A stretch of DNA of 64,000 nt from Octopus vulgaris (taxonomy: Eukaryota). Positions 39,209 through 59,586 of this stretch are shown here, one piece after another. The notes under the pieces were generated by a model. That model did no database searches. It was not told the DNA's origin and was given only the letters and a program-made list of their open reading frames with translations. The position numbers and the translations under genes were made by a program. How positions within the stretch are numbered: position 1 is the stretch's first letter; the number at the start of each line of letters is the position of its first letter. The DNA lies in assembly GCA_951406725.2 (NCBI GenBank), contig OX597839.1:20026001-20090000 (forward strand), written 5' to 3'.

Positions 39209-39472
39209 TTAAACTTAAATGTTGAAGTGAATCGAACGGCTTTTGTGTATTTCTTAAATGGCTTATAAACACCTTCCACGCTGCAATTGTTTTCGTTTCA
39301 GCACACGATCTCAGATCAAATTACTTGCTATGCGAGTACATCTCCCTATATATATATATATATATATATATATATATATATATATGTAGGTCCCGGGCTG
39401 ATTCGGGGTTAACCACAGTAAATAAGGTACTCAATACATAGCAGAGTAAAATTAATTTATTATATAGAAGGA

Positions 39473-39521
39473 GCTTCTACAGGACTAGAACTGTTTCATT
39501 CAAGAGAAATCTTCAGGAAGC
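39473..39521 (-). ncRNA. Hammerhead ribozyme in (TA)n-flanked element 39386-39555
   Basis: Minus strand: gcttc-CTGAAGA-tttc(tctt)gaat-GAAA-cag(ttctagtc)ctg-TA-gaagc; the inverted + copy is truncated before GAAA. Confidence 0.8.
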
Positions 39522-40102
39522 ACTTCCTGAAGATTCCTGAAGATTTCTCTTGAATATATATAATATATATATATATATATATATATATATATATATATAT
39601 ATATATATATATATGTAAGTATGTATGTATGTATATATACACATATCTGTATGTATGTATGTATGTAATAATCAAATTATATATCGGTCTCTCCGTCTTT
39701 TGTTGTGATCCTCCGGTCCGTGATATAATTCTCTTGCATGAAACCGTGTTCCGCGGTGCAAAAATGGTCGGTGAGCGCTGCATTGCAAGACGCCTTGAAA
39801 GGCGATATCCCATGACTATTGATTATTAAAATAACCTGAACCAAACCTGGCTGGGAATCTGTCTGCGATTTGTTCCACATTCTAACACTGCTGAATATCG
39901 ATCCGTATGTACTTTGATATATGTATTTGGGATAATAGCTATCGATATATTTCAGATATGGGAAGTATCGAAGCGCAAGAATATTAACAGGTATTGTAAA
40001 ATCTGTTGGTCTACATCTGTTTCTTCCAAGTAATGCAGCCTCTAGTAAGTCACCAAGCCCGCTAGAAGTAGCAGCCAAATTTCAGTTAAAATTACACCCT
40101 GT

Positions 40103-40500
40103 TCTTTTACTCTTTTACTCTTTTACTTGTTTCAGTCATTTGACAGTGGCCATGCTGGAGCACGGCTTTTAGTCGAGCAAATCAACCCCAGGAATTATTC
40201 TTTGTAAGCCTAGTACTTATTCTATCGGTCTCTTTTGCCGAACCACTACGTTACGGGGACGTAAACACACCAGCATCAGTTGTCAAGCGATGTTGGAGGG
40301 ACAAACACAGACACACAAACACACACACACACACACACACACACACACACACACACATATATATATATATATATATATATATATATATATACGACGGGCT
40401 TCTTTCAGTTTCCGTCTACCAAATCCACTCACAAGGCTTTGGTCGGCCCGAGGCTATAGTAGAAGACACTTGCCTAAGGTGCCACACAGTGGGACTGAAT
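40103..40500 (-). mobile_element. SINE family A
   Basis: Matches family consensus. Confidence 0.85.
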
Positions 40501-40836
40501 GCTGTCCATTATTATTATTATTATTATTTTTTGGGTAGTGAATGTCATGGATGTATTGTCTCCAACAAACCAGAAAAGAAAAGGAAGAACTTCACAAAAA
40601 AGGCCATGCTGGAATTTTATTAGATAAAAACGGCTGTCAACAACTGTTATGAGTACGTTTAACACAAACACATACACACACACACACAGGTACACGCACG
40701 TACATAGCTAGTTACATACGTACACATATACATTCATAAACACATATATAAACGCCTTTTGGTATACATATGTAAATACACACACACACAAACACATATA
40801 CGTGTGTATATACTTATGCATAGATACATACTAATA

Positions 40837-40917
40837 CAGTAATCCCGCGACTAACGCGAGTTTTATGTTCCAAAAACACCCGCGATAGGTGAACCGCAAT
40901 ATGGCGAGGGATTATTG
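40837..40917. mobile_element. pogo/Tigger-like MITE
   Basis: TA-CAGTAATCCCGCG...CGAGGGATTATTG-TA: imperfect TIRs with TA flanks. Confidence 0.65.
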
Positions 40918-56047: not shown

Positions 56048-56310
56048 TTGTGTTCTTGAGCAAGGCACTTTATTTCACGTTGCTCCAGTTCACTCAGCTG
56101 TAGAAATGAGTTGCGACGTCACTGGTGCCAAGCTGTATCGACCTTTGTCTTTCCCTTGGATAACACTGGTGGTGTGGAGAGGGGAGGCTGGTATGCATGG
56201 GCGACTGCTGGTCTTCCATAAACAACCTTGCCCGGACTTGTGTCTAGGAGGGTAACTTTCTAGGTGCAATCCCATGGTCATTCATGACCGAAGGGGGTCT
56301 TTACCTTTTA
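56048..56310 (+). mobile_element. 5'-truncated SINE (same body as 42920-43180)
   Basis: TTGTGTTCTTGAGCAAG...GGTGCAATCCCATGGTCATTCATGACCG. Confidence 0.75.
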
Positions 56311-58377
56311 CACATACATATATATATATATACATATAATATTTTTACTAACAATGGCCTAGCGTATACAAAAATTAGTCAATAAGAAATAGATGGTAAA
56401 TGTTTTAATTTTTCACTCCCTTCGACATTTTATCCCTAATTAGTGGTTTGGAATTTAGCTATTCCTTCTACTGTAAGGGAGTCCTATGATGGATACCTCT
56501 TAATGTGTTTAAATGTACACTGGATTTTATGTATATATATATATAAACACACACGTGTGTGTGTGTGTGTGTGTGTGTGTGTGTGTGTGTGTGTGTGTGT
56601 GTGTGAGTGGGCCTCTATTTGTTTATGAATTTCTGAATAAATTGTGAGATGCGACCCCAAAATATACGCGCGCGCGAACACAAGCTCACACAAATACACA
56701 CACACGCACGCACATTTATGTATATATGTGTATCTGCGCGCGCGCGTATGTATATAAGCAGTTCGATTGCAAAAGTGAGTGTTTTCAAACGCGCGTGAAC
56801 GACCGGTCGCCATTTTTCAGTCACAAAGCTAAGCTAGGGACACAGAATCAAGCTAAGATTTCACAGATCAGTTGAACACCTGAAAGATGACAAGCGTCTT
56901 TATATATGTGTGTGTGTGTGTGTGTGTGTGTGTGTGTGTGTGTGTGTGTGTGCTTATGTACGTGTGTGAATATATATGTAAATACATCTATGCATGAATA
57001 TATATATATACACACATACATCTATATATATATACATACATAAATATTATATATGTGTATGTGTGTGTATATATATAGAAATATATATATATACACGTAT
57101 ATGTAAATATGTAAATATGTATATATATATATATATATTTACATACATGTATAGATATAATATATGTGTAAGTATATACATGTATATATATATATTTATA
57201 TACTTCTTTATGCATGTATATATGTGTGTGTGTGTACATAAAATACATAATAAATTCATAAACATGTACCCCAGTCCCACATAGGCACACACACATCCAC
57301 ACATACACACACAAACACACACATATAGATATATATACACATATATACACACATATCTATATGCATGCCCGTGTATGTATAAATATGCATGTGTGTGTAT
57401 ATGTGTACGTATATATGTCCACAGATACATAAGCGCATATAGATTTTTATACACACACACTTACGTACATACAAATAGACATACACTTAGATACACACAC
57501 ATACATATATGTGCAAGTATTTATACACACACACACACACACACACACACACACACACACACACACACACACACACACACACACACACACACACACACAC
57601 AAAATCACATCAACTTCGAAAGGAAGTTATCTGGGAGGACGGCTGTTGATATGTTGATAGTAAGAGATTTGCGATTGGGGTACCTCGGGGGTGGCTGGTG
57701 GGGTACCTACCTTTATGCGATACTTCTAAAGAGGATAAAGGGAGGGTGAGGCAGTGAATGGGGTGGGGTGGGGGGTTAAAGAACATGCATGTATGTACAG
57801 AGCATGGTGGGGGAGGGGTTTCATTTGAGCAGTGAAAGTGTTGGAGTATTCTGTGACGGCTCTGATATCTTTATTTCACGCCAACGCTGATACCTAATAC
57901 CTCGGGGTATCCGGGGTGGATGCAGGATGAGGTGGGGGTGGAGAACGGGGGGGGTGGTTCTTGATTTATTGAAGTTTAGGTGACAGCTATACGGCCTACG
58001 GGCAAATATGTACGGAAACGTACGTGAAGGCGTGTGTGTAAGCGTATAGACGGTTTCAACATTTACCGGCACTAATCGCACACGCATGCACGTATAACGA
58101 AGAAGATATATATATATATATATGTATATATATATGGGTATATATATATATATGGGTATATATATATATATATACCTATATATATATGGGTATATATATA
58201 TATGGGTATATATATATATATATATATATATATATATATATATATATATATGAGTATATATATATATGGGTATATATACATGTGTGTGTTTGTGTGCGGA
58301 TGTGTTTGTATGTGGCCTTGCGTATTTGTGTGTGTTTCTGTGTTTCTGTGTAACACACACACACACACACACGGTTA

Positions 58378-58590
58378 TTCTTTTATTCTTTTGCTTGCTT
58401 CAGTCATTTTGACTGCGGCCATGTTGGAGCAGCGCCTTTAGTCGATCAAACTGTCCATAGGGCTTATTCATTGTAACCATTGTGCTTAGTCTATCAGTCT
58501 CTTTTGCCCAACCGCTAACTTACGGGGACGTAAATACACCAGCATTGGTTGTTAATCGATGGTGAAGGAAAAACACAGACACCCCGAAAC
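58378..58590 (-). mobile_element. SINE family A, 3' half
   Basis: Family motif. Confidence 0.75.
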
Positions 58591-59388
58591 ACAAATACAT
58601 ACATACATATACACACACATGTACATATATAAATTATATAAGGTATTATGATTATCATTATTAGCATTAATAATAACAACAACAATAATAATAATAATAG
58701 TAATAATAATAATAATAATAATAATAATAATAATAATAATAATAATAATAATAATAATTCATTCGTTTATTGGCCACAAGGGTTAACAAAAATCAATTAT
58801 AACATAAAGGGACAACACGCAGGACGAAAGTTACAAAGGGTTTTGTCCGTTTGAAAAAGGTCCGTGTACAAAAGCAGGATGACAACGAAATATAAGTAAC
58901 AATTAAAACTCCCAATAGGAGGAGTAATATTAATAATAATAATAAGTGGCCAGCAAGTTTATAGCTATATAGGTAAAAATATACAAATAAATTAAGTAGG
59001 GTATTAGAATACCACTTGCTAGAAATAGAAGCTAACACTCCAAAACCACAGAATTTCTCACTAATAAAATACCCACGGCGAATGTAGCGAATATAAAAGA
59101 AATAGACTTACCGTATATGAAACTACAGAAGCAAGGAAGACAGATATTCCGGTCTGTCTGTCTGTCTTCGGAATATCCGTTTTTTTCTGGCTTCTGTAGT
59201 TCATAGAAGGTAAGCCTACTCACAATGCTTTGGCCGGCCCGAAGGCTATAGTAGAAGACACTTGTCAATGATGCCATGCAGTGGGACTGAACCTAGAACC
59301 TTGTGGTTAGGAAACAAGTCACTGCTGCACCTATTTACCTATATATATATATATAAACATATATATATATATGCATATATATATATAT

Positions 59389-59586
59389 GTAGGTCCCGGG
59401 TTGAGTCGGGGTTAACCACAGTAAATAAGGTACTCAATACATAGCAGAGTAAATTAATTTATTTTATAGAAGGAGCTTCTACAGGACTAGAACTGTTTCA
59501 TTCAAATGAAATCATCAGGAAGCTTGATGATTGCATTTGAATGAAACAGTTCTAGTCCTGTAGAAGCTCCTTCTATAAAATAAAAT
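59389..59586. mobile_element. PLE-like palindromic element in (TA)n with an intact HHR on minus (59474-59524) and a centre-deleted HHR on plus
   Basis: Near-identical to 41444-41643; the + copy has lost bases at the palindrome centre including C3. Confidence 0.75.

Follow-up and report, generated by a model that had tools for sequence, protein, structure and literature searches.

Why do three copies of a short repeat in the genome of Octopus vulgaris turn back on themselves at almost the same base, next to stem I of a predicted hammerhead ribozyme? The copies lie in a stretch of 64,000 nucleotides (nt) of contig OX597839.1 (GenBank assembly GCA_951406725.2, positions 20,026,001 to 20,090,000 of the forward strand); "the window" below means this whole 64-kb stretch, with positions counted from its first letter. 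The DNA of the window is 36% GC and rich in microsatellites. A BLAST search of the window with the long arm of copy B found exactly three copies of the outer end of the family, at 39386, 41444 and 59389 (copies A, B and C), the same three that had been singled out in the original prediction, and the outer end is alike in all of them, (TA)n-GTAGGTCCCGGG. By analogy with described elements, these copies most likely are stubs of a known kind left by a Penelope-like retrotransposon (Penelope-like element, PLE), a parent element that we infer.

Organization of the copies

Each copy consists of a 136-nt long arm on the minus strand and a shorter arm on the plus strand, joined head-to-head inside (TA)n, which flanks all three copies on both sides; the whole inserts are 170-200 nt in length. 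Read from its 5' end, the long arm comprises a type I hammerhead motif followed by about 85 nt that run up to (TA)n. The long arms (A, 39386-39521; B, 41444-41579; C, 59389-59524) are 95-98.5% identical across copies: B and C match at 134 of 136 positions, and A matches either of them at 129 of 135 aligned positions (6 differences and one indel). The short arms (A, 39523-39555; B, 41578-41643; C, 59525-59584) lack 68 nt or more at the outer end, so that the tail (68 nt, 41444-41511, minus strand, in copy B) is found in the long arms only. None of the three copies is arranged head-to-tail, and the window contains no direct pLTR (partial-tandem) copies of the family; the public contigs considered below give at most 30 nt of upstream sequence.

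Fold-back junctions

The breakpoints of all copies are expressed here in the coordinates of copy B, where 41579 is the first base of the 5' strand of stem I. The long arm of A has its inner end at 41578 and that of C at 41579; in B the end can be placed only to 41577-41579, since it falls in the centre of the palindrome. All three thus end at most 2 nt from the 5' end of stem I. The fold-back at nearly the same base in three copies is real, in agreement with the original prediction, which also held that the junctions themselves differ, as they do. Junction B has no spacer, its centre (41577/41578) lying within a self-complementary AGCT (41576-41579) at the 5' end of stem I. Junction C is 3 nt short of a perfect palindrome, and its short arm begins at core position U4. 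Junction A (39522-39555 with its short arm) has a 2-nt spacer, a non-native base at 39522 and a 10-nt tandem duplication (39526-39535, repeated as 39536-39545), and the short arm stops after stem II, at 39555. This arm starts exactly at CTTCC, and junction B can be read as a blunt join at the same point.

If breakpoints are assumed, not measured, to be uniformly distributed over a range of at least 100 nt, the probability of three falling within 3 nt is about 0.003 or less; within 10 nt, under the same assumed null, it is about 0.03 or less. The clustering is not a product of picking copies by their ribozyme core because, in the BLAST search, no copy in the window stops short of the ribozyme or extends beyond it. 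The long arm holds 10 self-complementary 4-mers, of which only that at the 5' limit is used, in each of the three copies; this exclusive use suggests the end of a template rather than microhomology alone.

Independent formation of the inverted copies

Within the region common to both arms, three sites discriminate the copies, namely, position N7 of the hammerhead core and two positions of the stem II loop. The two arms of each copy agree at all three sites, consistent with the claim that arms are more alike within a copy than between copies, the distinction between B and C being made by a single site. The arms of A show no differences over 18 shared nt (the flank base of the short arm was left out; 19 nt with it), compared with 2-4 differences between the A short arm and the other copies; the arms of B and those of C each differ at 1 of 58 nt. 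Two private changes are absent from the partner arm, and one of these, at 41541, is a rare variant in each of the four public sequencing runs described below.

Copy C is flanked by a 20-nt direct repeat (59369-59388 and 59585-59604, plus strand) with a diagnostic GC interruption. The hexamer ATATGC precedes only 2 of the 107 (AT)6+ tracts in the window, and these two are the flanks of C. Because the 20-nt duplication surrounds the whole hairpin, hairpin C was inserted as one event at a staggered cut. Copies A and B lie in pure TA, where a target duplication cannot be judged, so the diagnostic duplication is available in one copy of three. Given that the arms agree within copies, that the three junctions differ and that the duplication of C encloses the hairpin, the conclusion that the inversion arises repeatedly and independently at integration is supported.

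The hammerhead motif

The motif comprises stem I (AGCUUC/GAAGCU), CUGANGA, a weak stem II, GAAA, stem III and a GUA cut triplet, and occupies 39472-39521 in the A long arm (with A at N7), 41529-41579 in the B long arm and 59474-59524 in the C long arm, with predicted cut sites at 39478/39477, 41535/41534 and 59480/59479, respectively; each of the three long arms continues across its predicted cut site. A second motif in B spans 41576-41626 on the plus strand, sharing the palindrome centre with the first. The complete core, CUGANGA/GAAA/UH in a three-way junction with an open stem I, is present in 4 of the 6 arms (the three long arms and the B short arm). The C short arm lacks C3 and the 5' strand of stem I, and the A short arm lacks GAAA. 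Hence, of the earlier statement that N7 and the stem II loop vary while the core is kept, the first half stands and the second applies to these four arms only. Translation from an ATG within the motif would meet a stop after 4 codons.

The predicted type I hammerhead is plausible but imperfect. Positions 10.1/11.1 form U-U in all arms that reach them, as opposed to the usual G-C, and only three canonical pairs follow in stem II, so the motif has neither the G-C closing pair nor a stable stem II. Rfam yielded no matches of any kind at the gathering threshold, and over copy B no hammerhead model matched at E<=10; the only models returned by E value for copy B and for the unit at 11.8 kb, all below threshold, were of generic hairpins and small RNAs and were rejected as hairpin artefacts. 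For the four complete 51-nt units, the hammerhead fold has a calculated energy of -6.7 to -7.3 kcal/mol, and the minima are -7.6 to -8.8 kcal/mol, so that the fold lies 0.3-2.1 kcal/mol above the minimum. Unconstrained folds of 60-nt pieces were no better than those of shuffled sequences (z from -1.46 to +0.73). The head-to-head core pattern matched three times, compared with a mean of 0.02 in shuffled sequence, and all three matches lie in copies A and B. As a monomer, stem III has little stability (-2.1 kcal/mol), and its partly palindromic loop gives a duplex of -14.2 kcal/mol, the pattern of PLE hammerheads that act as dimers (PMC4209133; statements on cited papers, here and below, refer to the parts of their texts that were available). 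The hairpins formed by whole elements are calculated at -53 to -112 kcal/mol; in place, such a hairpin would be favoured over the ribozyme fold. A transcript across a stub would form a long hairpin in which the ribozyme is sequestered, and this would make the stubs dead ends.

The family in public contigs

The stretch occurs under five organism labels in public data. We aligned to the long arm the contig sets of 4 of the 24 listed public runs, which gave 5861, 1582, 1621 and 90 aligned contigs; the family is very abundant in these contigs. Sorted by label, the runs are X1, X2, X11 and X15. The alignments reveal a second fixed terminus, 64-71 nt inside the first, where contigs of all four runs enter (TA)n at 41508, 41510, 41512 or 41515. 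The end at 41512 is represented by at least 11, 11 and 14 contigs in X1, X15 and X2, that at 41508 by at least 11, 4 and 1 in X1, X2 and X11, that at 41515 by at least 4 and 2 in X1 and X11, and that at 41510 by at least 1 in X11. The inner edge of the tail coincides with this terminus (41508/41512/41515), and the short arms of B and C end there, at the equivalents of 41512 and about 41513, respectively. Contig depth roughly doubles inside 41509-41519, a depth that is not a copy number and from which no fraction was derived. No RNA run is listed among those that contain the stretch; the RNA nature of run X11 is only guessed, and this run was not used as evidence of expression.

At least 26, 14, 19 and 2 contigs in the four runs match through 41579 and then continue into other sequence, and loose contig ends diverge only beyond 41579. 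The nativeness of the AGCT needed checking because any spacerless palindrome centre is self-complementary by construction; the contigs that continue past 41579 show that the AGCT is native, that the family reaches further upstream and that some copies are not folded at stem I. Stem I is therefore a preferred rather than an obligatory site of folding, so that of the proposal that the inversion is a reproducible product of integration, recurrent formation is upheld and a family-wide rule is not.

The loose-end consensuses contain, on the sense strand, TATATA (X1) and TATAAA (X15) at -29 to -24 from 41579, with T/A at -1/+1. A TATA element at -29 has the spacing typical of a polymerase II start, and the hexamer hints that the RNA starts at stem I. 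An upstream motif that was searched for is absent from the window at up to 3 mismatches.

Mechanism and alternatives

We consider it moderately probable that the three stubs were left independently by a PLE, or by a small RNA mobilised by a PLE, through two-ended priming and joining at stem I. Under this scheme, the PLE enzyme would cut both target strands in (TA)n and prime two complementary DNAs (cDNAs), one where the tail ends and the other about 68 nt inward of it; the two would be joined at the 5' end of stem I, the point at which reverse transcription would halt. Identical minus-strand ends can anneal only at a self-complementary word. Annealing of the two cDNA ends through the native AGCT would yield junction B exactly, whereas trimming would lead to junction C, and an added base together with slippage to junction A. 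By the geometry of nucleic acids, a 4-nt self-complementary end cannot close a loop-free hairpin. Because such a hairpin cannot form, we favour the joining of two cDNAs at AGCT over the snap-back of one, and the original idea of cDNA snap-back on this AGCT fails as stated. The two-ended priming is suggested by analogy with in vitro work on a PLE protein: at AT-rich DNA both strands are cut and extended, synthesis begins at two internal sites bounding the tail, 5'-truncated RNA gives shorter products, and uncleaved RNA is used (PMC11167929).

The least certain step of this scheme is the stop, which would be the 5' end of the RNA if a promoter in the pLTR starts transcription at stem I; copies that extend upstream would then derive from read-through transcripts of tandem units. 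The full version of this idea, which we offer only tentatively, is that the fold-back marks the transcription start, with TATA at -29 and the RNA beginning at stem I, and that a dimeric enzyme primes twice just downstream, runs off the 5' end and joins the cDNAs via AGCT. If so, each stub would be a base-resolution record of two-ended internal priming, and the inverted repeats of PLEs would be explained without self-priming or antisense templates.

Several observations weigh against independent two-ended priming, its link to a PLE or a transcription start at stem I. Only one site separates B from C, and the B short arm differs from the C long arm, again, at just 1 of 58 nt. The A short arm ends in stem II, away from the second terminus, which is as compatible with capture at whatever AT microhomology is available as with fixed priming. 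The contig matches listed include no strand-changing joint; exact fold-backs would overrun the end of the query stretch, and this absence was not used as evidence, given that hairpins presumably break such contigs. The median loose length is 17 and 21 nt, so that the TATA-like hexamer falls outside it, and consensus agreement is 0.72-0.78; X1 and X15 share one organism label, the X2 consensus (0.58) contains no such hexamer, and the hexamer could be (TA)n flank. In Penelope of Drosophila virilis, the promoter is internal and TATA-less, and the start lies 46 nt above an intron. Another hammerhead family in the window (see below) turns back about 17 nt upstream of the core, with 39 nt of spacer between the arms, so that exact pinning to stem I is not general; the closeness of the fold-back to the ribozyme may be. 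No reverse transcriptase or GIY-YIG frame linked to the family is evident by eye, without a domain scan, among the 113 open reading frames of the window, and no related locus was found in the viral, metagenome or prokaryote collections. The family pattern scans gave 0 loci in viral contigs and 0 in metagenome contigs, and the single match in prokaryote genomes, 42 nt at 83% in a bacterial contig without a hammerhead, was rejected as chance. Finally, the tail of 68 nt exceeds the 30-40 nt usually described for PLEs.

The main rival is single-ended priming followed by snap-back or self-priming, in which one cDNA extends to stem I, folds over to serve as its own template and is then caught by the opposite (TA)n end where AT-rich microhomology first occurs. 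A single template suffices for this course of events, which explains the identical haplotypes of the two arms, and the second terminus is the first long AT-rich run past the ribozyme; moreover, the A short arm ends at another AT dinucleotide and carries a slippage duplication, and self-priming is the preferred published reading of palindromic inverted junctions (PMC3846280). In that respect, the original inference was not novel, given that the same paper already interprets head-to-head palindromic junctions in this manner. We nevertheless regard snap-back as doubtful: the in vitro reaction proceeds by cutting of both strands and extension from two start sites bounding the tail (PMC11167929), the absence of a loop in B and the 2-nt spacer in A are too short for intramolecular fold-back without added bases, and pairing of the cDNA end with its own other stem I strand would give a short arm devoid of the core, which is seen in none of the three copies.

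Spread of one or a few pre-formed palindromes as a unit, in the manner of miniature inverted-repeat transposable elements (MITEs) or by retrotransposition, with the junction differences arising from later centre-breaking repair and the arms homogenised by conversion, appears unlikely. The 98.5% identity of B and C, the possibility of reading junction C as junction B minus 3 nt and the instability of perfect palindromes at the centre are compatible with such a history. However, the ends are asymmetric rather than terminal inverted repeats, the short-arm ends vary, and 20 nt is an unusually long duplication for a MITE; three changes are mirrored concordantly in both arms, two private ones stayed unconverted, and the family occurs with non-palindromic upstream sequence. 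Even less probable, in our assessment, is that copying stops at a 3' splice junction, or at some other boundary set by processing, instead of at a transcription start, with a native AG|CTTCC at the start of stem I. The start of the A short arm exactly at CTTCC and the blunt-join reading of B would fit such a boundary, as would the intron of D. virilis Penelope, which ends at the 5' end of helix I (PMC4209133), but the acceptor context is weak in the contig consensus (purines at -5/-6), and splicing would keep exon 1 attached, giving no free end.

The object itself is ordinary, one more family of Penelope-type hairpin stubs; the question that remains is why copying likely stops exactly at stem I of the ribozyme. 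How PLEs make inverted repeats is still an open question (PMC8557442): PMC3846280 proposes self-priming, and in PMC11167929 two start sites are demonstrated but not how the products are joined. Two-ended priming and snap-back could be told apart by a direct census of a family that, like this one, is young and abundant and has sharp termini and a narrow fold-back hot spot.

Other repeats in the window

The window holds at least three further head-to-head units. A second, unrelated head-to-head hammerhead family in (TA)n, at 11760-12196, has complete cores on both strands (11985, minus; 12058, plus), A-U at 10.1/11.1, a palindromic stem III, arms that are 93.5% identical, a 39-nt spacer and a tail on one arm. 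The unit at 10609-10848, also in (TA)n, has arms about 12 nt apart, is extended on one side, lacks a canonical hammerhead core and may be a Naiad-type stub. An older head-to-head unit, at 37430-37933 and 39165-39356, has arms that are 75% identical and contains internal repeats; copy A is inserted into the TA tract where another copy of this older family ends.

Among the remaining repeats, the abundant one is a SINE-like (short interspersed element-like) repeat of 184 nt (21550-22340, 18296-18849, 42380-42800, 1667-1986 and others), which forms head-to-tail tandems of 2-4 units along with dispersed copies and in which no CUGANGA core was found. A 125-amino-acid frame on the minus strand (25552-25929) resembles, by eye, the restriction-like endonuclease end of a non-LTR (long terminal repeat) retrotransposon. 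The region 31368-32908 is a recent local duplication with an inverted piece (31748-32112 vs 32543-32908, 96.7% identity; 31477-31585 vs 32228-32336, 100%), and 43677-44309 consists of two adjacent inverted copies of a common dispersed repeat, about 80% identical.

Comparison with known systems

The head-to-head architecture, and self-priming as its cause, are already published for PLEs. In endonuclease-positive (EN+) PLEs, an inverted 5'-truncated copy lies beside the pLTR, with a tail at one end and (TA)n targets (PMC8557442), and the palindromes at inverted junctions are mostly head-to-head (PMC3846280). The octopus stubs share with these insertion units, of the Neptune and Poseidon types, the adjacent head-to-head inverted 5'-truncated copy (three of three copies), the tail on one arm, the AT-rich or (TA)n target with a target duplication of variable length, the palindromic inverted junction and the type I hammerhead motif in the repeat. 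They differ from the units described in those papers in the lack of a linked open reading frame, in the short insert (170-200 nt) and in the junction that lies within 2 nt of stem I in all three copies; a literature search that missed most subscription papers found no paper placing PLE inversion junctions at stem I of the hammerhead.

Metazoan PLE hammerheads (PMC4209133), which in Schistosoma occur as pairs on opposite strands 100-700 bp apart, have the same type I topology, a partly palindromic stem III loop suiting dimers and copies dispersed from truncated PLEs; by comparison, the motif analysed here has a 6-bp stem I, a 4-bp stem III, U-U at 10.1/11.1 and cores only about 10 nt apart. The animal non-LTR retrozymes (PMC7229834; bioRxiv 10.64898/2026.07.22.740005) are likewise short repeats with a type I hammerhead and no coding sequence, presumed to be mobilised by PLEs, but are defined by head-to-tail tandem units, unlike the three copies in the window. 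In PAc (Poseidon of Anolis carolinensis; PMC11167929), the hammerhead overlaps the start of the open reading frame, in contrast to the motif described here with its early stop; the two systems have in common the two fixed 3' termini that bound the tail, the AT-rich target and the uncleaved hammerhead that is read through.

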